Shown: positions 2,856-62,789, counted from the stretch's first letter. The stretch: DNA of 64,000 nucleotides from Candidatus Acidiferrales bacterium (GCA_965247455.1 CBDFHE010000016.1:79101-143100); one strand, 5' to 3'. The notes: generated by a model from the sequence alone, not told the origin. Numbers and translations: made by a program.

Positions 2856-3323
2856 TTAGGTGCGGGGGGGTTTGAGGGGCTGGGCGAGCAGGTCTTCCTT
2901 GCGATAGACCATGTCGGCAATGTTGTAGGTGGCGAGCTCGAAGCCGTGGCCGTGGGTGATGGCGTCGGTGGGGCAGGCCTCGACGCAGTAGCCGCAGAAG
3001 ATGCAGCGCGAATAGTCGATGTTGTACACGCTGGCGTAGCGCTCGCTGGCGCTGATGCGGGTTTCGGCGGTGTTGTCGGCGGCCTCGATGTAGATGCACT
3101 GCACCGGGCAGGCGGCGGCGCAGAGGAAGCAGGCGACACACTTTTCCAATCCGTTCTCGTCGCGGTGCAGGACGTGGATGCCGCGGTAGCGGGCCTCGAA
3201 GCGCACCGGCTCGTCGGGGTAGTTTTCGGTGACGGTGGGGCGGAAGAGCGTGCGCAGGGTGACGGAGAAACCCTTGGCGAGGGTGAAGGCGGTTTCGGCG
3301 GCTTCTTTGAGTATGGATGGCAT
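2856..3323 (-). CDS. nuoI: NADH-quinone oxidoreductase subunit I (2x[4Fe-4S]), standing alone
   Basis: TENYPDE, RYRGIH, CVACFLCAAACP and CIFCGYCVEACPTDAI. Confidence 0.92.
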   Translation of the reverse strand: MPSILKEAAETAFTLAKGFSVTLRTLFRPTVTENYPDEPVRFEARYRGIHVLHRDENGLEKCVACFLCAAACPVQCIYIEAADNTAETRISASERYASVYNIDYSRCIFCGYCVEACPTDAITHGHGFELATYNIADMVYRKEDLLAQPLKPPRT

Positions 3324-3409
3324 AGGGATCGCCTGCTCCGTCCTGCGAGAAGCTCCAGTATAGCGGCAGGATCAGTTTTCCAGCAAGGGTCGCGGGTTAA
3401 GAAGGACGA

Positions 3410-3437
3410 ACCGCAGAGGACGCAAAGGTCGCAGAGG
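3410..3437 (+). repeat. 28-bp direct repeat, copy 2
   Basis: 24/28 identical to 2826-2853; all differences are A/G transitions. Confidence 0.7.
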
Positions 3438-3502
3438 AAGAAAAGAAAATGAATACCTAGCGGGAAGTTGAATTTGGCGAGGCGGATGCCCCCCGTGCTT
3501 GG

Positions 3503-3586
3503 GTGGCGCGGACATTCCTGTCTGCGCAGTGCTGGAGTGGCAGACCCGGGCCAGAGGCGGATGGCAGGCAAGAATGTCTGCCTCAC
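3503..3586. repeat. REP-like doublet (family R1, GTGG/GTAG + GCAGACATTCYTGTCTGC hairpin)
   Basis: Inverted copies at 3503-3527 and 3564-3586. Other pairs at 27386-27451, 33989-34077 and 54994-55059. Confidence 0.85.
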
Positions 3587-3660
3587 TGAGTTGAGAACTT
3601 CCTTGGGGGTATCCGTAGGGGCAAATCTTGTACTTCTTCCGGGAGGCGCGTCACAAAAAT

Positions 3661-3705
3661 AGATTCCTCGCTTGCCTACCGCAGGCAGGCTGCGCTCGGA
3701 ATGAC
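3661..3705. repeat. AGATTCCTCGCTGCGCTCGGAATGAC repeat (family R3) interrupted by the 17-bp micro-element
   Basis: GC(3670-3671) + TTGCCTACCGCAGGCAG + GC(3689-3690). An uninterrupted relative lies at 52646-52673. Confidence 0.8.
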
Positions 3706-3716
3706 GCTGCGCAAGG

Positions 3717-4037
3717 TTACTCTTCCAGTACGCGGCGGAGTTCTTCTTCGAAGCGGCGGAGTTGCTGCTGCCGTTCGGAGGTGGCGGGGAGGCGGTGGGA
3801 CTTCCAGACGAACCACTCTTCCCCGCCCTGCTGGACTTTCACCGCGATGTTGCCTTCCACCAAGTAGCCGGGCTGGGCGGCAATTTCCAGCCGGTCGTTC
3901 GACACCGGTCTGAGCAGAGCCGCGCAGCTATACTTCTTGACGGCGATGTGCCCCTCGAACAACGGATAGGTTCCGAACTCGAACCCTTGCTCGAGCAGTG
4001 TCTTGAGTCGTCGCGCGTGTGCTTCGCTCGCGTCCAT
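3717..4037 (-). CDS. Hypothetical protein (106 aa)
   Basis: Protein-like composition (MDASEAHARRLKTLLEQGFEF...); fills the gap between the repeat cluster and the PilZ gene. No recognisable motif. Confidence 0.6.
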   Translation of the reverse strand: MDASEAHARRLKTLLEQGFEFGTYPLFEGHIAVKKYSCAALLRPVSNDRLEIAAQPGYLVEGNIAVKVQQGGEEWFVWKSHRLPATSERQQQLRRFEEELRRVLEE

Positions 4038-4166
4038 TGAAAGAATGGTACCAGAGAGCGGCCACATGGCTCGCAAGGTTTGTCTTTGCCGCGTGATTCC
4101 GGTAGAGTGCCGGTAGTTTTGGGAATACGCGGGCAGAGATAAACCAACCGCGCTCAGGAGGAAGCG

Positions 4167-4853
4167 GTGTCACGCCAGCAGTCATCCACCGACGCTGACT
4201 GGCAAAACGTGCAGCGGCGAAGAGGAGTACGAATCGTCCTGTCCCTACCTGTGAAGGTGGCCTGGGTCACCAAGGAGGGCAAGCGCGTTTCCCGACATGC
4301 TGAAACCGAGGTTGTCAGCGCGTACGGTGCCACGCTCTGGATGAAGACCCCGCCACCGACCTCCACCGAGGTTGAGTTGACGCACGGGCGCACGCGCAAG
4401 TCGGTACGCGCGCGGGTGCTGAGGGCCCATCCACCCGAGAAGAATCAAACGCCGCAAATTGCGGTGGAACTCAAGGCTCCCAGCGAATCTTTTTGGGGGC
4501 CGAACTACCAGCTCCAGAAAGCCGGCTTGGAATTGCGCCAACTGGAGCTCGCCATTCCAGCAGAGGATATTGATGCGCGGGTGCTGGATGAATTCCGCCG
4601 GGCGGTGGACTACGTCCGGCAAGCGTCTTGGGCGATGCACCAGTGGATAGAGTTGCAGGCAAAAGGGCACGACCCCTACGGCATACTTTCTGTGCTGGCG
4701 ACTGAGCGCGTGAAACGGCTCACTCAGCTCACCGGCAACTTGTCATTAGACCTGGATGCCGCCGAAGTGAGCTTTGAGACCGCAGGGCTGATGGAGCTGG
4801 CTCAGGCGGTCGCCGGATTGCACAGACGTTTGACCCGCCTATTGAAGAAATAA
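4167..4853 (+). CDS. PilZ-domain protein with C-terminal helical extension
   Basis: QRRRGVRIVLSLPV (RxxxR) and EVVSAYGA (D/NxSxxG-like), followed by a beta-barrel-like segment. Confidence 0.7.
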   Translation: MSRQQSSTDADWQNVQRRRGVRIVLSLPVKVAWVTKEGKRVSRHAETEVVSAYGATLWMKTPPPTSTEVELTHGRTRKSVRARVLRAHPPEKNQTPQIAVELKAPSESFWGPNYQLQKAGLELRQLELAIPAEDIDARVLDEFRRAVDYVRQASWAMHQWIELQAKGHDPYGILSVLATERVKRLTQLTGNLSLDLDAAEVSFETAGLMELAQAVAGLHRRLTRLLKK

Positions 4854-4877
4854 AGAATCAACCGCAGTGAGCAGCGG

Positions 4878-5702
4878 TCAGGACTGTTGTTCCAGGGCGT
4901 CGAGGATGGCGCGGAGGGTTTCCAGGATTTCGCGCCGGGGGACGACCGACTTGCGGAAACGCAGGCGCAGCTCGAAGTTGCTATCGGGCGCGCGATAGGT
5001 ATAGACGAAGGGTTTGAGCCGGGTGACGTTCGAGGGCTTGCGCTGTGCGCGGGCCTCGCTGCGGGACATGCCGCTGGCGAGTTTTTCCGCCAGGTCGGTC
5101 ATCTTGCGCTCGTTGGGCTGGCGGGCGACTTGCAACAGCAGCGACTTCGAGAGCAGTCCCAATTGATCGCACTTCTTCCGCACCTGCGCCGGGATGGCGC
5201 GCAAGGCCAGCGTCTCGGTGACGGTGGCGCGCGACTTGCCAATGCGGCGGGCGATTTCTTCGTGGGTGTAGTCGAACTGCTCGGCCAGGGTGTAGAGGCC
5301 CTCGGCTTCCTCGAACGGATGCAGGTCCTTGCGCTGCAAGTTTTCGATCAGCGCCAGCTCCAGCATCTCGGCGCTGTCGGCGACGCGCTCGATGCAGGGG
5401 ACCTCGCTCAGGCCGGCGGAGCAGGCGGCGTGGAAACGGCGCTCGCCGGAGATGATGGTGTACATGTCGTCGTCGGCGTCATGGCGCACCAGGAGCGGCT
5501 CGAGCACGCCTTTCTCGCGGATGGAGTGGGTGAGGTCGCGCAGGTCGCCCAACTCCTTGCGGGGCTGGTTGGGATTGGGGCGCAGCCGGTCAACGGGAAT
5601 CATCTTCCCGATGGCGGCGCCGGTAAGCGCCGTGATGCTCTCCACGTAGTGATAGTCGTGGCGCATCCTAACGGTGGGGGGCAAGCCGGTTCGTTTCGAC
5701 AC
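4878..5702 (-). CDS. parB: ParB/Spo0J family protein
   Basis: PNPNQPRK, GVLEPLLVR, IISGERRFHA, ALIENLQRKDL and HTH region HEEIARRIGKSRATV. Confidence 0.9.
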   Translation of the reverse strand: MSKRTGLPPTVRMRHDYHYVESITALTGAAIGKMIPVDRLRPNPNQPRKELGDLRDLTHSIREKGVLEPLLVRHDADDDMYTIISGERRFHAACSAGLSEVPCIERVADSAEMLELALIENLQRKDLHPFEEAEGLYTLAEQFDYTHEEIARRIGKSRATVTETLALRAIPAQVRKKCDQLGLLSKSLLLQVARQPNERKMTDLAEKLASGMSRSEARAQRKPSNVTRLKPFVYTYRAPDSNFELRLRFRKSVVPRREILETLRAILDALEQQS

Positions 5703-6456
5703 GGTCGAGTACCTCGCGAGAGAGTTTCATGAACTCCTGCGCCCCCGGCGACTTGGGAGCGAAGGTCAAGATACTTTCTTTGTACGCGGGACTTTCTTCA
5801 ATCCTCACGCTGCGGCTGATTTGCGTCCGCATCAGTTTCTTCCCGAAGACGGCCTTGATTTGGTTGAAGCTGTCGCGGGCGATGTTGGTGCGCGGGTCGT
5901 ACATGGTGATGAGCACGCCCAGCAATTGCAGGTCCGGGTTGGGCCGGCTGCGGACACGTTCCAGGGTCTCCAGCAAGTCGTCGGTTCCTTCCAGAGCAAA
6001 ATAGCTGGCCTGGATGGGCACCAGCAGGTGGGTGGCCGCTACGAAAGCGTTGACGGTCAGAATCCCCAGCGCCGGCGGGGTGTCGATGATAATGAAGTCG
6101 AAGTTGGAGCGCACCGAGGACAGGGAGTCTTTCAAGCGGAAGGGGGCGTCGAACTGCCCCACCAGCACCTGCTCCAGCTTGGCCAAAGAGATGCGCGAGG
6201 GGGCGAGCGAAAGATTGGGCGCGCTGGTGGGCCGCACCAGCGCCTCCAGCGGCACACGGTGGTCGGAGAGAACGTCGTAGAGCGACTCGTGGATACCGGC
6301 CGGGTTCAGGAAGGAGATGGTGCAGTTCGCCTGCGGATCGATGTCAATCAGCAGCGTCCGCTTCTTGCTGTGAGCCAGCGCGGCCGCCAGATTGATGGCG
6401 GTAGTAGTTTTTCCCACGCCGCCCTTTTGATTCGCGACGGCGATGATGGTCGCCAA
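5668..6456 (-). CDS. parA: ParA/Soj family ATPase
   Basis: ANQKGGVGKTTT deviant Walker A, LIDIDPQAN and IIIDTPPALG. TTG start chosen; overlaps parB. Confidence 0.92.
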   Translation of the reverse strand: MATIIAVANQKGGVGKTTTAINLAAALAHSKKRTLLIDIDPQANCTISFLNPAGIHESLYDVLSDHRVPLEALVRPTSAPNLSLAPSRISLAKLEQVLVGQFDAPFRLKDSLSSVRSNFDFIIIDTPPALGILTVNAFVAATHLLVPIQASYFALEGTDDLLETLERVRSRPNPDLQLLGVLITMYDPRTNIARDSFNQIKAVFGKKLMRTQISRSVRIEESPAYKESILTFAPKSPGAQEFMKLSREVLDRVETNRLAPHR

Positions 6457-57857: not shown

Positions 57858-60587
57858 CTAGAAGCGGATGTGGTAGGTGATTTGGGTGTTGAAGCCGGGG
57901 GCGTCCACGCCCGAGCCGTGGTAGCGGTAGTTTCGGTCGAGCAGGTTTTCGAGCACAAAGACTAGGTCAGTTTGCTCGCTGACCTGATAGCCGCCGCGCA
58001 GATTGAAGGTGACGAAGCCGGGCGTCTTGGTGAAGAAGAGCGCGCTCTCGACACCCGCGCCCAGCACGCGGTCGAGCACTTGGTCGAGCGTCTCGCCCGT
58101 CGCCAGCAGCACGCCACCGCTCACCAGCCCGCGGGCGACGGCGCCGTTGTTGAAGAAGCGCGCAATGCTCGTCCGCGAGCGCAGCGCTCCGATGCGCTGG
58201 TCGGCCAGCTCCAGTGAGGACAAGCGGTCTTGCTTGCTCACCAGGTTGCTGTAGCCCTCCAGCCAGTAGCGCTTGCCCGGTGCCTGCCAGCGCAAGCTGA
58301 GGAACCCGTTGGCGGGCGGCAGGCCGCCTTCGATGTCGGGCGCGCCGCCGTTCACTTTGTCCCGCCCGCGCAGGTAGGTGAAGTTGGCGTGGGCCGACCA
58401 GGAGTTGCTCAACTGCCCCTGCCACGCGCTTTCGATCCCCCAGATGCGCACGGCTCCCACGTTGGCGCGCACCAGCACCGGCCGGGAATCCACCGCCGTC
58501 AGCACCGCGCCCAAGGGCAATTGCTCCACGATGGTCTGCCCGCCGATGTTCTGTCCCACCGCCCCCAGCGGCAGCAGCAGCGCGCGTTTGGTGATGAAGT
58601 CGCTGATCTCGTTGCTGAAGCCGGTGAGCGAGGCGGTCATGCGCCCGGTGCGGAAGCGCAGGCCCAACTCGTAGTTGTAGAGCACTTCCGGTTCGAGCGT
58701 CGTCACCGGCTGGCCGCTAGCGGTAGCGTTCGTGCCAGCCGTGCTGCCTACTTCCCCGCCGGCGGCGCTGCCGTCGTCGGGAGAAACCTCAAAGCCGTTT
58801 GAGGTCAGCCCCACGGAGCTGAAGTCGGTGACGTTGGGCGCGCGAAAGCCGCGCCGCACCGTGCCGACCAACTGAACCTGCTGGGTCAGGCGCACCACCG
58901 TGCCCAGGTTGAATGTCACATCGTGCAGCGTGGTGGAAAAATCGGGCACCAGTGGCTGGCCGTTGGCGTCGCGCAGGTTGGCGTCGGCAAAGGTGCGGAA
59001 GTTGAAGGCGCTGTAGCGCAGCCCGCCTTGCAGTCGCACCCGGTTGGGGAACAAGTCCAAACCGTGCTGGTAGAAGAGGCCGTAGGTGGTGTAGCGGGAC
59101 TCGTCCGGGAAGCGCCCGCGCACATCTGTCCGGCTGCTGGTCAGCGGGTCGAAGCGGGTGCGGGTGGAGTCAATGTACTCGTCGTAGATTTCCCCGCCGA
59201 AGACCAGCGATTGGCGCGCGCCGATATGCGTAGTGGCCTGCACCTGATAGCCGAGGGCGGCGGTCTGGTTGGACTCGTCGGTGATGGCCGCCAGTGGGTT
59301 GCCCGCGCCGCCTTGCGTCCGGCGGTCGTCGCGCTGGCGGTTGTAAGAGAAGGTGGCGCTCAGGTTGTCCAGCCCGCCCGCCGGCTGCTTTTCGTAGCGC
59401 AGGTAGAAGAAGTCCAGAATCTGCGGGTCGAAAGCGTGGATCAGGTCGCCGTTGCCGCCGTTCAGCTTGTCGTAGCGGCGTCCGCCGCGTTGTTCGCTGC
59501 GCATGTAGCTGGCGCTGAGGTTGTGCCCCGGTGCCGGCTTCCAGAAGAAGCGCGTGAAGCTGGCAAACTGGGTAAAGGCGGTGTCTTGCAGCCGGGCGCC
59601 CAGCACGTCCGAGGGCAAGCCCAGGAAGCGGGTGACGGCGGCGTGTGAGTCGCCGCCCCGGCCCGCCCGCAAGTCCTGCACGCGGCTCCCGGAGGCGCCC
59701 CCGAACAAATTCCAGTTGCGGCTGCCATAGGAGAGGCGCAGTTTGCCGCCGGTGGAGAAGTCGGCGCTGCGGACGAAGGGCGTGAACTCGCCCCGGAAGT
59801 GCCGGTCGGTCGTGTCCACCTGCGGGCGCATCGGCAGCACATTGACGGTTCCGCCCAGGCTGTCGCTGCCGTACTGCGCCGACGCGGGCCCGCGCGCCAC
59901 TTCCAGCCGCTCGACAAAATTGGGGTCCACCAGCGCTAAATATTGGTTGGGGCCGGGGCGGAAGGTGGAATTATTCAACCGAATCCCATCAATCAGGTGC
60001 AGCACTTGCTGCCCGGTCAGCCCGCGAACCACCACCGCTCCCTGATGGGCGGTGGTCTGCTGCACCATCACGCCTACCTCTTCCCGCAGCGCCTGCGGTA
60101 GGATGACGCCCGGGCGGATCAGCAGTTTGTCTCCACCTACGACGTTCACCTGTCCGGGAAGGTTGAAGGCGTTTTCCACTTCGCCGCGCCCCGGGGTGAC
60201 GGTCACCAGCGTCGCCAGGGGCGCAATCTGCAAGACAAACCGAAGCGGCTTCGCTTCCGCGCGCGGCACGCTGACCGCCGCGCTGCTGGCCGCCATACCA
60301 GGTGCATGCACCACCACTTCGTAGCTGCCGGCAGTAAGGTCGCTCAGGAGAAATTCGCCTCCCGCGCTGGTTACAGCCGTTCCAGCCGGTGTTTGTCCTT
60401 GCCGGTAGGCGGTCACCTGAGCGCCCGCAATCATCGCCCCGGAAGGGTCCAGTACCTGACCGTGAATTTCATAGGCGGGGGTGGAGGCAGCAGCGGACGC
60501 GGAGAAAGCAAGCAGCAGAAGGGTCAAAGGAAGAAACAGCCCAAGTGGGGAGCGCAGATAAGGTTTGGGTAGCTTCATTGCTCTCAT
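57858..60587 (-). CDS. TonB-dependent outer-membrane receptor with N-terminal carboxypeptidase-regulatory-like domain
   Basis: Signal peptide, GQVLDPSGAMIAGAQV, plug (ERLEVARGPASAQYGSDSLGGTVN), FRAPN, ENLLDRNY and terminal aromatic residue (HIRF). Confidence 0.92.
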   Translation of the reverse strand: MRAMKLPKPYLRSPLGLFLPLTLLLLAFSASAAASTPAYEIHGQVLDPSGAMIAGAQVTAYRQGQTPAGTAVTSAGGEFLLSDLTAGSYEVVVHAPGMAASSAAVSVPRAEAKPLRFVLQIAPLATLVTVTPGRGEVENAFNLPGQVNVVGGDKLLIRPGVILPQALREEVGVMVQQTTAHQGAVVVRGLTGQQVLHLIDGIRLNNSTFRPGPNQYLALVDPNFVERLEVARGPASAQYGSDSLGGTVNVLPMRPQVDTTDRHFRGEFTPFVRSADFSTGGKLRLSYGSRNWNLFGGASGSRVQDLRAGRGGDSHAAVTRFLGLPSDVLGARLQDTAFTQFASFTRFFWKPAPGHNLSASYMRSEQRGGRRYDKLNGGNGDLIHAFDPQILDFFYLRYEKQPAGGLDNLSATFSYNRQRDDRRTQGGAGNPLAAITDESNQTAALGYQVQATTHIGARQSLVFGGEIYDEYIDSTRTRFDPLTSSRTDVRGRFPDESRYTTYGLFYQHGLDLFPNRVRLQGGLRYSAFNFRTFADANLRDANGQPLVPDFSTTLHDVTFNLGTVVRLTQQVQLVGTVRRGFRAPNVTDFSSVGLTSNGFEVSPDDGSAAGGEVGSTAGTNATASGQPVTTLEPEVLYNYELGLRFRTGRMTASLTGFSNEISDFITKRALLLPLGAVGQNIGGQTIVEQLPLGAVLTAVDSRPVLVRANVGAVRIWGIESAWQGQLSNSWSAHANFTYLRGRDKVNGGAPDIEGGLPPANGFLSLRWQAPGKRYWLEGYSNLVSKQDRLSSLELADQRIGALRSRTSIARFFNNGAVARGLVSGGVLLATGETLDQVLDRVLGAGVESALFFTKTPGFVTFNLRGGYQVSEQTDLVFVLENLLDRNYRYHGSGVDAPGFNTQITYHIRF

Positions 60588-60605
60588 TTGTTCGGCTGCC
60601 CGCCG

Positions 60606-60630
60606 CTAGTTGCAATTGGATTGCAACTAG
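60606..60630. promoter_or_regulatory. Palindromic operator CTAGTTGCAAT-TGG-ATTGCAACTAG (core GTTGCAA-N5-TTGCAAC), probable Fur-family site
   Basis: Perfect 11-3-11 inverted repeat between the -10 element and the receptor start; the motif recurs at 60686-60704 and 62119-62137. Confidence 0.75.
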
Positions 60631-60637
60631 AACATTA

Positions 60638-60667
60638 ACTCTATCGTCTGCCACGTGAATCAGTCAA
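60638..60667 (-). promoter_or_regulatory. Candidate sigma70 promoter for the TonB-dependent receptor
   Basis: TTGACT (60667-60662), 18-bp spacer, TAGAGT (60643-60638). Confidence 0.55.
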
Positions 60668-60714
60668 GAGTGGAGAGAATTTTCTGTTGCAGGCTGGTTG
60701 CAACTAGTTGCAAC
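60668..60714 (+). repeat. 47-bp direct repeat, left copy, abutting the IS left end
   Basis: 45/47 identical to 62101-62147; contains the perfect 18-bp palindrome GTTGCAACTAGTTGCAAC. Confidence 0.92.
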
Positions 60715-62100
60715 TGTAGCTGCAAAGTGAGAATGTCCTATTTGCGCAAAGTAGGAATGTCCTCTTTCATCAGGGCCAGGAGGGACGATGAGAGAGGAGC
60801 GAATCGAATTGAGCCAACGGGAGCAGGATTGGTTGAAGGTACTCCACCAAGTCGAGCAGGGCTATCTGACCCAGGTGGAAGCGGGCCGGCGGGTGCAGGT
60901 GAGCGTACGCCACCTGCGGCGTCTGCTGAGACGGGTGCGGGCGGAGGGGGACAGGGGCGTAGTGCATCGGCTGCGGGGGCGGCCCTCGAACCGGAAGATT
61001 CCAGCGGCCCTCCAGGGGCGCATCCTGGCCCAGGTGCGGCGGCGCTACGCCGACTTTGGGCCCACGCTGGCCAGCGAGCACCTGGCGCGAGATGGGTGGC
61101 AGGTCAGCCGGGAGACGCTGCGGCAGTGGATGACCGCCGCCGGGCTGTGGCGGTCGCGCCGGCAGCGGAGGCCGGCGGTGCACGTCTGGCGAGAGCGGCG
61201 GGCCGCCTTCGGCGAGTTGGTGATGATGGACAGCTCGCCCTATCGCTGGTTGGAGCGGCGCGGACCTCCCGTGCAGTTGATCGCGCTGATCGACGACGCT
61301 ACCAGCCGGGTCTGGGGCCGCTTCGCCGCCCAGGACTCGACCGAGGAAAACCTGCGCACCCTGGCAGGCTGGCTCCGGCGCTGGGGACGGCCGCGGGCAC
61401 TCTATACCGACAAAAGCAGCCTGTTCCGCACCACCCGCTCGGCCCGGCTCGACGAGCAGCTCGGCGGTCAGCCGGCCCGCACCCAGATCGGGCGGGCCCT
61501 GCAGGAGTTGGGGATCGAGTGGATTCCCGCCCACAGCCCCCAGGCCAAGGGGCGCATCGAGAGACTATTCGGCACCTTGCAGGACCGCCTGGTCAAGGAG
61601 ATGCGCCTGACCGGGGTGCACACGGTGGAGCAGGCCAACCGCTTCCTGGCAGCAGTCTTCCTGCCTTTCTGGGAGCAGCGCTTCACCGTCGCTCCGCGCC
61701 AGCCGCACGATGCCCACCGCCCGCTGGGAGGCACCCAGCGGCTGGAGTCAATCCTGAGCGTGCGCGAACCGCGCCGGGTGGCAGGCGACTACACCGTGCG
61801 CTGGCAGGGCCAGCGCTGGGCGATCCCGCGCGCCCAGGTGCGAGCGGGGTTGCGGGGGGCGCGGGTGGAGGTCGAACGGCGGCTCGACGGCAGCCGCTGG
61901 GTCCGCTTCCGCGGCTCTTATCTCAGCCTGCGGCCCTGCCCGAGCCCGCCGCCCGCGCCCGCAACCCCCTTCGGCCTACGGCCTACGGGGCTTGCGGGCC
62001 CAAGGAAAGGCAAACGAAAGTACATTCTCCCTCCCGATCACCCTTGGAGGAGGACATTTCTATCTGGCAAAAAACCGGACATTTCTACTTTGCGTTGACA
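60715..62100 (+). mobile_element. IS1202-group (ISNCY) insertion sequence, 1386 bp
   Basis: TGT...ACA ends; imperfect inverted repeats with two internal (A/G)AATGTCC / GGACATTT boxes at each end. Confidence 0.88.
60788..62098 (+). CDS. IS1202/ISNCY-type DDE transposase (integrase-core fold)
   Basis: HTH, YADFGPTLASEHL, GELVMMDSS, IDDATSR, YTDK, SPQAKGRIERLFGTLQDRL and C-terminal PDHPWR. Confidence 0.9.
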   Translation: MREERIELSQREQDWLKVLHQVEQGYLTQVEAGRRVQVSVRHLRRLLRRVRAEGDRGVVHRLRGRPSNRKIPAALQGRILAQVRRRYADFGPTLASEHLARDGWQVSRETLRQWMTAAGLWRSRRQRRPAVHVWRERRAAFGELVMMDSSPYRWLERRGPPVQLIALIDDATSRVWGRFAAQDSTEENLRTLAGWLRRWGRPRALYTDKSSLFRTTRSARLDEQLGGQPARTQIGRALQELGIEWIPAHSPQAKGRIERLFGTLQDRLVKEMRLTGVHTVEQANRFLAAVFLPFWEQRFTVAPRQPHDAHRPLGGTQRLESILSVREPRRVAGDYTVRWQGQRWAIPRAQVRAGLRGARVEVERRLDGSRWVRFRGSYLSLRPCPSPPPAPATPFGLRPTGLAGPRKGKRKYILPPDHPWRRTFLSGKKPDISTLR

Positions 62101-62147
62101 GAGTGGAGAGAATTTTATGTTGCAAGCTGGTTGCAACTAGTTGCAAC
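62101..62147 (+). repeat. 47-bp direct repeat, right copy, abutting the IS right end
   Basis: 45/47 identical to 60668-60714. Confidence 0.92.
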
Positions 62148-62179
62148 ACGACCCGCGTTTTGCTCTTAGGAGAGCCTGC

Positions 62180-62626
62180 TCAGGTCCGGCAGTGGGTGCA
62201 GTAGCCGCCCATCTCCACCCGCGTCAGGATGATGTGGAAGTGGCATTCCCGCTCCACTTCCCCCTTCAGGCGCTCGAACAGGTGGCTTTCGAACTCCACC
62301 ACCTTGCCGCAGCGCAAGCAGGCCATGTGCAGGTGGTCACGTTGCGGGCGACGCTCGTAGTAGTGCCCGTCGCCGCGCAGGTGGAGCAAGTCCAGCTCGT
62401 CCACCAGCCCGTGGCGCTTCAGCAGCTTGAGTGTGCGATAGACGGTGACGCGGTCGATGCTGGGGTCGAGCCGTTGGGCCTTGCGCAGGATTTGGCTGGC
62501 GTCCAGATGTTGCTTGGCGGTCTCAATCACACCCAGGATGGTGCGCCGCTGCCGCGTCATGCGCACCCCGCGCACCATCAACTCCGCTTGCAAGCGCCCC
62601 GGCGCTTCCGTCTTCGGCATCGGCAT
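62180..62626 (-). CDS. Fur-family metalloregulator (Fur/Zur/Mur/Nur/PerR subtype unresolved)
   Basis: RMTRQRRTIL, HLDA, VTVYRTLKLL, DHLHMACLRCG and C-terminal CTHC. AGGAGG RBS. Confidence 0.92.
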   Translation of the reverse strand: MPMPKTEAPGRLQAELMVRGVRMTRQRRTILGVIETAKQHLDASQILRKAQRLDPSIDRVTVYRTLKLLKRHGLVDELDLLHLRGDGHYYERRPQRDHLHMACLRCGKVVEFESHLFERLKGEVERECHFHIILTRVEMGGYCTHCRT

Positions 62627-62789
62627 CGCAACGCCTCCTGAAACCCGGTTGCAATAAGCTTACTCCCCTTCCCCCGCCCCGGTCAAGTCCAGCTGATAGC
62701 AACTTTTGGCATTTGAAAATGATGAACACTCGTAGATGATATTGCGACCATGGGGGATGAGAGACGTTAGGCAGAAGGAAGCAAGAGAA

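Follow-up and report, generated by a model that had tools for sequence, protein, structure and literature searches.

The stretch of DNA analysed here, a window of 64,000 nucleotides from Candidatus Acidiferrales bacterium (GCA_965247455.1 CBDFHE010000016.1:79101-143100), carries at 60715-62100 on the plus strand an insertion sequence (IS) of the IS1202 family, which is bordered by a 47-bp direct repeat and lies upstream of a gene encoding a TonB-dependent receptor. The element belongs to a known subgroup, that of ISTde1, and has two unusual features, namely a single oversized duplication in the window copy and a preference for promoter -35 boxes extending through its whole clade. The oversized duplication is best read as the product of a single aberrant transposition with a displaced second strand transfer, an explanation given a probability of about 0.6.

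The left, promoter-proximal copy of the repeat occupies positions 60668-60714 and the right copy, proximal to a Fur-family regulator gene, positions 62101-62147. The two copies are identical at 45 of 47 positions, the mismatches being C at 60684 against A at 62117 and G at 60692 against A at 62125, and the repeat extends to 48 bp if an ambiguous A (60667 or 62100) is counted. With 96% identity within 1.4 kb, such a repeat cannot be due to chance. It is flush with TGT at one end of the IS and with ACA at the other. Direct comparison of the 16 bp on either side of the element (TGCAACTAGTTGCAAC and GAGTGGAGAGAATTTT) revealed no short duplication at the junctions, the two flanks being unlike each other, and a hidden duplication of standard length is thereby ruled out.

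Origin of the duplication

Every related locus recovered that spans the insertion site is empty. One 47-mer, positioned between the stop codon of the Fur-family gene and the receptor gene, is present in L072, whose Fur protein is 99% identical and whose flanks are 99.5-99.8% identical to those of the window, as well as in L073-75 (Fur protein 95% identical) and L197 (97% identical). Two further loci, L076 and L198, stop short of the junction site, L198 ending inside the first box, and carry no junction information. Since three related empty lineages hold one 47-mer, comparison of the alleles shows that the 47-bp duplication arose with the IS insertion. The first-pass annotation of this DNA had described a 47-bp repeat exactly flush with the IS, free of any shorter junction duplication and created by the insertion, and on each of these points the sequence of the window and the empty alleles, with one copy each and not two, agree with it.

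The 47-mer of L072 is intermediate between the two window copies, in that the C at 60684 is ancestral and the A at 62117 derived, while the A at 62125 is ancestral and the G at 60692 derived. The copies were therefore identical at birth and have each acquired one change since, the left copy at 60692 and the right copy at 62117. Divergence from L072 is similar to the left and to the right of the IS.

Strains with 99.5-99.8% identity elsewhere differ by several indels in the intergenic region. In L072 (positions 5448-5530 of that locus), the segment from the Fur stop codon to the 47-mer is approximately 45 bp longer than in the window (62148-62179), and the extra bases contain an inverted repeat, CCTGCA...TGCAGG, that is absent from the window.

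Duplication length in sister copies and relatives

The transposase cluster comprises 55 members, and the loci used for comparison were reached through its members P0121, P0122 and P0124; exact-protein look-ups of the window transposase, the window Fur protein, P0001, P0020 and P0002 gave no matches. Fifteen other copies of the window IS are all 1386 bp long, 0-3 nucleotides from their consensus and 99.8-100% identical at the nucleotide level. Perfect duplications of 15-17 bp flank the near-identical copies at L058, L060, L064, L065, L067 and L068. The flanks of repeat-less copies pair across loci, the left flank of L059 with the right of L070, the right flank of L062 with the left of L071, and the right flank of L063 with the left of L066; because of this pairing, the repeat-less sister copies are, as judged from their flanks, products of recombination between IS copies. 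Approximately 25 relatives from acidobacterial metagenome-assembled genomes, with 65-68% amino acid identity and the same ends, likewise have duplications of 15-17 bp, and seven more relatives in JGI metagenomes have the same duplication length. The 38 other insertions with both flanks (31 loci plus these seven) thus show 15 or 16 bp plus the ambiguous A, none of them being longer, and duplications of 27-28 bp were not seen among the approximately 39 insertions. A second clean long duplication was not found in 120 further metagenome loci, where sites with the target motif GTCAA 29-41 bp from the left terminal inverted repeat (IRL) consist of tandem copies of short units.

It is clear that the 47-bp duplication is an outlier and not a property of the element, since near-identical copies and relatives give 15-17 bp at unrelated sites. 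A long stagger as a trait of the element, as initially proposed, is contradicted by these data. The claim of a record length holds in part. The subgroups of the IS1202 family make duplications of 5-6, 15-17 and 27-28 bp, with 29 bp in ISShal2 (bioRxiv 10.1101/2022.12.17.520857; PMC10132070), and 47 bp exceeds any duplication reported for this family; outside it, however, IS1549 and IS1634 produce repeats of 8-514 bp (PMC2266710).

Tandem structures were found at several of the comparison loci. In L012, two IS copies at 2928-4340 and 4356-5768 form a tandem IS-16 bp-IS arrangement with a shared duplication, and in L015 another left end lies at 4356; a single GTCAA was hit twice here, since an insertion restores the target on its left side. 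Two to three extra tandem units of 11-17 bp are present in the right flanks of L003, L007, L008, L013, L023, L125 and L164, extra units of the same size occur in the left flanks of L095, L119, L148, L155 and L169, and in L021 a 14-bp remnant of the right terminal inverted repeat (IRR) lies between two copies of the duplicated unit. These tandem short units resemble scars at a hotspot into which an IS inserted, and from which it was lost, more than once.

Target choice

In 33 of 49 flanks the distance between GTCAA and IRL is exactly 15-16 bp, and in 90 of 159 flanks it is 15-17 bp (background 0.001 per nucleotide, P<1e-70); the remaining target sites mostly have nnCAAS at the same position. 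Throughout the clade, IRR is joined directly beside GTCAA and IRL 15-16 bp further, giving the 15-17 bp duplication. On the opposite strand the target sites read TTGAC(A/T)-N17-TAArnT. A TAnnnT at a spacer of 16-18 bp accompanies 62 of the 90 GTCAA sites, compared with 7.6% of 1852 control GTCAA sites, and at 13 of 14 distinct sites of near-identical copies a leftward gene, in one case rpsL, starts 79-207 bp away and points away from the IS. Since GTCAA is the reverse complement of TTGAC, and given the accompanying -10 and the gene orientation, most of the target sites are predicted to be sigma-70-type promoters. As judged from these sequence patterns, the counts show that the clade inserts immediately upstream of promoter -35 boxes, with a single orientation that points the element away from the gene.

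The right-end tip of the IS itself, TGTCAAC, agrees with the target motif, (W)GTCAA(S). The transposase may read GTCAA as a sequence, with survival limited to insertions between genes, mostly at promoters, or it may recognise promoters as such. No target was found in earlier studies for the long-duplication IS1202 groups (bioRxiv 10.1101/2022.12.17.520857; PMC10132070), no later report of one was found in the literature, and targeting of -35 boxes by the ISTde1 subgroup, which rests on approximately 160 independent sites, appears to be undescribed so far.

The first-pass annotation had envisaged that a Fur-family operator complex guides the insertion. A search of the other insertion flanks for its TTGCAA-N5-TTGCAA box found the box in only 1 of 159, that of L063; enrichment of operator boxes at insertion sites is thereby ruled out, and the determinant is instead the GTCAA of the -35 hexamer abutting the duplication. 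Even in L063, GTCAA keeps the canonical distance of 16 bp from IRL, with the box situated downstream of the -10.

The L063 copy (left flank 2853-2927) is positioned upstream of an FTR1/FtrD iron-permease operon, whose promoter (TTGACA-17-TAAACT) has a perfect box, suggesting that this promoter may belong to the same regulon as that of the receptor gene in the window. The 12 bp just before IRL in L063 (TGTAGCTGCAAT) nearly repeat the IRL tip.

The receptor promoter and its boxes

The target in the window is the promoter of the receptor gene. Its -35 hexamer TTGACT (60662-60667) and its -10 hexamer TAGAGT (60638-60643, assigned by consensus match) are on the minus strand and separated by an 18-bp spacer, the plus-strand GTCAA of the -35 (60663-60667) abutting the duplication. 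In a promoter scan, TTGACT-18-TAGAGT was the only promoter-like site in 60500-62300, and with a gene downstream it has the predicted make-up of a sigma-70-type promoter.

Boxes built from TTGCAA hexamers are found on both sides of this promoter. A perfect 6-5-6 box (TTGCAA-TTGGA-TTGCAA, 60610-60626) downstream of the -10, a putative operator, is not duplicated and is conserved in L072-75 and L197. Upstream of the -35, the left repeat contains a three-hexamer array, TTGCAG-N5-TTGCAA-N4-TTGCAA (60687-60713), with hexamers spaced 11 and 10 bp, and the right repeat contains its counterpart (62120-62146). The first two hexamers of the array form a 6-5-6 box, without mismatch in the empty alleles and the right copy (62120-62136) and with one mismatch in the left copy (60687-60703). 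Expressed as palindromes, the 47-bp repeat contains two GTTGCAAC and a third GTTGCAAG/GTTGCAGG box. The three 6-5-6 sites are the only good matches in the 64 kb, and the boxes are conserved in orthologous loci, with variable spacers.

This architecture matches that of the Nur box of Streptomyces coelicolor, tTGCaa-N5-ttGCAA (PMC2691836), and the resemblance extends to the surroundings, the perfect boxes having as neighbours a TonB-dependent receptor of the metal type and a Fur-family gene. A plausible role for the boxes is that of operator for the neighbouring Fur-family protein, in view of the Nur-box match, their conservation in orthologous loci and their absence elsewhere in the 64 kb. The sequence of the candidate regulator itself, however, does not favour Nur (3eyy, E 4.6e-12) over Fur/Mur (E 1e-18). 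The initial description of operator-like boxes within the repeat, and of an insertion that preserves promoter and operator, is consistent with these findings, as the promoter and all of the boxes are still attached to the receptor gene.

A displaced strand transfer and its alternatives

Comparison with the geometry of the clade shows that the IRR joint of the window copy is canonical, because the -35 GTCAA of the promoter abuts the left repeat copy, and that the IRL joint lies 47 bp away instead of 16. In a single aberrant transposition, the receptor -35 would have been targeted canonically on the IRR side and the IRL strand transfer displaced by 31 bp, one event being the simplest route. Gap repair would then duplicate the whole 47 bp, and the promoter would keep its complete upstream box array. 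The extra 31 bp begin 3 bp before and end 1 bp after the three-hexamer array. They correspond to about three helical turns, so that the side of the helix under attack would not change; the three duplication classes of the family differ by about one helical turn. As a speculation, a regulator dimer on the 6-5-6 box may occlude the canonical position (60683/60684); this dimer, or an unusual DNA structure in its place, might drive the second strand transfer on to the next in-phase position open to it. The length of 31 bp is also that of a 31-nt imperfect palindrome (47-31=16), and extrusion of this palindrome as a cruciform fits numerically, but with its unremarkable folding energy it is retained as a minor sub-hypothesis. 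Selection is a likely filter that would help the rare 47-bp product to survive, since a canonical 16-bp event would separate the box array from the promoter, and in the 47-bp product promoter and array stay together.

Several points weigh against this account. A single such event was found among approximately 39 insertions with both flanks, making the mechanism a case of n=1, and the structure in the window comes from one assembly. A footprint broad enough to block the canonical joint could equally extend over the joint that was made, the Fur-family protein is no more than a candidate binder of the boxes, and the folding of the palindrome is not better than that of shuffled sequence (z -0.72). 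Furthermore, the repeat copies have accumulated 2 changes in 94 sites, compared with 3 private changes in the 1386 bp of the IS (Fisher P=0.035), more than a young duplication should show. This last objection is tempered by the comparison of the window with L072, in which the whole intergenic region appears to be faster-evolving.

The same arrangement could be a recombinant of two alleles, if two independent canonical insertions in the same orientation had occurred 31 bp apart in different strains and a crossover had followed inside the IS, uniting the left flank of one insertion with the other's right flank and so mimicking a 47-bp duplication. The two mismatches of the repeat would then be strain polymorphisms, the site is of the hotspot type, at which the same GTCAA can be hit repeatedly (as in the tandems of L012 and L015), and recombination between IS copies is frequent in these genomes. 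Yet two hits within 31 bp plus an exchange between strains are required, and the second target would have CTGGT, rather than nnCAA, 15-17 bp from the IRL junction, which is rare. Neither parental allele was found, all recovered loci spanning the site being empty, and divergence from L072 is alike on both sides of the IS, making this route unlikely. Tandem units of 11-17 bp beside relatives and the IRR remnant in L021 recall a multi-step scar, in which the repeat was built by repeated insertion and loss at one hotspot; each 47-bp copy, however, is colinear with the uninterrupted empty site, carries one substitution and is devoid of internal tandem units and IS remnants, and such a history is very improbable. 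It is scarcely credible that a tandem 47-mer was already present when the IS inserted, although its copies differ at two positions and the region is built of repeated boxes, because three empty lineages have a single 47-mer and the 15-17 bp junction duplication expected of a later insertion is not there.

An IS guided by an operator, with a site picked by the bound Fur-family regulator and characteristically long staggered cuts, would account for Nur-box-like 6-5-6 sites inside the 47-bp repeat and for the L063 copy, whose promoter site has a box of this type. Against it stand the 15-17 bp duplications of all other two-flank copies, the rarity of the box in other flanks together with its position and the canonical GTCAA distance in L063, and the fact that GTCAA accounts for the site choice without an operator; the chance that it is correct is remote. 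An artefact of assembly at a repeated element has in its favour that the IS is multicopy and that the related assemblies are low-coverage long-read metagenomes, with contig names carrying 3-9x. The 31 invented bases would nevertheless need the exact order and position of the empty allele and a different change in each copy, and the flanks are otherwise colinear with L072, which leaves an artefact as a poor explanation. Paths through a tandem IS dimer or an IS-IS deletion were rejected by reasoning only, as they give deletions or need at least four steps.

A broader reading, which joins the displaced strand transfer to the target preference, is put forward tentatively and is at present rather doubtful. 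The transposase would recognise -35 hexamers, possibly via mimicry of its own right-end tip or via promoter-bound RNA polymerase, and the spacing of strand transfer might be set in space and in helical phase, in which case a protein-bound or structured segment of 31 bp could be skipped (16+31=47). If true, this would be a promoter-homing IS clade, with a specificity unreported for the long-duplication IS1202 subgroups, and the same geometry would explain the duplication classes of the family, approximately 5.5, 16.5 and 27.5 bp, as being one helical turn apart.

Structure and family of the element

The IS, of the same length as its 15 sister copies and differing from the consensus of these within a range of 0-4 nt, begins with TGTAGCTGCAAAGT and ends with ACTTTGCGTTGACA. 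Its terminal inverted repeats, IRL (TGTAGCTGCAAAGTGAGAATGTCC, 60715-60738, plus strand) and IRR (TGTCAACGCAAAGTAGAAATGTCC, 62077-62100, minus strand), agree at 17 of 24 positions, and the IRR tip reads TTGACA outward on the plus strand. IRL is the same in 13 of the 15 sister copies and differs by one base in each of L066 and L070. A second, subterminal copy of GCAAAGTRGRAATGTCC is located at the left end (60746-60762, plus strand), 24 bp from the first, and a comparable second copy is found at the right end (62052-62068); the subterminal copy is a putative extra transposase-binding site.

Across the clade, the right-end tip TGTCAAC is invariant and positions 4-8 of the left-end tip are variable (TGTAGCTGC, TGTCGCAGC, TGTCGGCGC, TGTCACAGC, TGTGGCCGC). 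This difference suggests that the right tip is under extra constraint, for example from a -35 function.

The transposase of 436 amino acids is encoded by one open reading frame (60788-62098, plus strand) and consists of a helix-turn-helix (HTH) domain at the N terminus (HTH_28) and a DDE domain. It matches the NCBIfam profile ISNCY_2 (NF033594) with 389 bits, the cutoff being 250 bits, in accordance with its original designation as an IS1202-type element. Residues D148, D169-D170, D208, E258 and Q265, conserved in an alignment with two relatives, correspond to a DDE triad with an extra DD between the first two catalytic aspartates and a glutamine at E+7. The same arrangement characterises the HTH+DDE transposases of 400-500 amino acids of the IS1202 family (bioRxiv 10.1101/2022.12.17.520857), and the profile match, the imperfect inverted repeats beginning with 5'-TGT and the length of 1386 bp, within the 1320-1990 bp of the family, also conform to it. 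The duplications of 15-17 bp that define the ISTde1 subgroup are present in the sister copies and relatives and not in the window copy. The insertion of approximately 30 amino acids before the catalytic domain that goes with the IS1202 subgroup (27-29 bp) is absent, relative to relatives; an insertion of 4 amino acids was seen in the comparison with a relative that makes 5-bp duplications. Taken together, these data place the window IS, which is multicopy, in the ISTde1 subgroup of the IS1202 family, the host genome being acidobacterial. Compared with the 15 sister copies, its transposase has three private non-synonymous changes (R15W, A275T and P414L) and no private synonymous change, and given these the window copy may be older or inactive.

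Comparison with known systems

The ISTde1 subgroup shares with the element described here its size, a transposase of the same length and HTH+DDE organisation with the extra DD and the glutamine at E+7, the TGT...ACA ends, duplications of 15-17 bp (here in the sister copies), occurrence in Acidobacteria and repeat-less copies arising by IS-IS recombination. The differences are the 47 bp of the window copy, compared with a family maximum of 27-29 bp, and the strong targeting of GTCAA by the present clade, both published accounts having reported no target (bioRxiv 10.1101/2022.12.17.520857; PMC10132070).

In the ISAba32/ISAjo2 subgroup, XerC/D sites are targeted, the duplication is 5-6 bp and IRL lies 5 bp from the site. 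The present clade resembles this subgroup in that a recognised element immediately borders the outside of the duplication at its IRL side and has a constant orientation, but here the determinant is a promoter-like motif of 5-7 bp, the duplication is 15-17 bp and the transposases are approximately 42% identical. The dif-like site typical of the ISAba32 subgroup was not found at the window or clade insertions.

Relatives from Brucella/Ochrobactrum (L038-L043, L041, L045, L049; 42% amino acid identity) form an element of approximately 2.5 kb (about 2856-5375), with 5-bp duplications and a position 5 bp from a dif-like site, e.g. GTTCCATAATTTACATTATGCGATCA, which is the published behaviour of the ISAba32 subgroup. 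This larger element may carry a passenger gene.

Target sequences resembling their own ends are used by IS30 and IS911. Both the match between the target motif and the IRR tip and the tandem IS-16 bp-IS arrays of L012 and L015 are in keeping with that behaviour, with the difference that the motif here is also a -35 hexamer; end mimicry, promoter recognition and survival at promoters would all fit the sequences alike. IS1549 and IS1634, of the IS1634 family, are DDE-type elements that also have a far longer duplication than usual, of variable length and by no accepted mechanism (PMC2266710). They belong to an unrelated family, however, and vary from copy to copy, unlike the one long duplication against approximately 38 uniform insertions here.

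Significance

The length of the duplication serves to classify IS families and is taken as an unvarying mark of transpososome geometry. If verified, a 47-bp duplication made by an element that otherwise makes 15-17 bp would mean that such geometry allows a slip of about three helical turns; the window locus offers a concrete target for studying what sets the stagger. Insertion at a fixed distance upstream of a -35 and in a fixed orientation, at more than half of approximately 160 sites, bears on the choice of harmless landing sites. The -35 targeting is also relevant to a subgroup earlier reported as targetless and to the annotation of acidobacterial promoters (TTGACw-N17-TAAnnT).

Neighbouring genes

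The receptor gene whose promoter was hit by the IS (57858-60587, minus strand) encodes a TonB-dependent receptor of 909 amino acids with CarboxypepD_reg, Plug and beta-barrel domains. On the other side of the element, the Fur-family gene (62180-62626, minus strand) encodes the regulator of 148 amino acids that is the candidate binder of the boxes. As a correction to the initial description, it is the 3' end of this gene, and not its start, that faces the repeat, and the relevant promoter is that of the receptor gene.

The derived C-to-A change at 62117 creates TATGTT 15 bp after the outward TTGACA of the IS right tip. The resulting combination (62095-62121) could be a weak hybrid promoter with a short spacer, reading antisense into the Fur-family gene; the promoter scan made no call at this site. 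Just upstream of the start of the Fur-family gene, at 62638-62654, there is a weak 6-5-6 box with two mismatches (CTGAAA-N5-TTGCAA), hinting at possible autoregulation of this gene.

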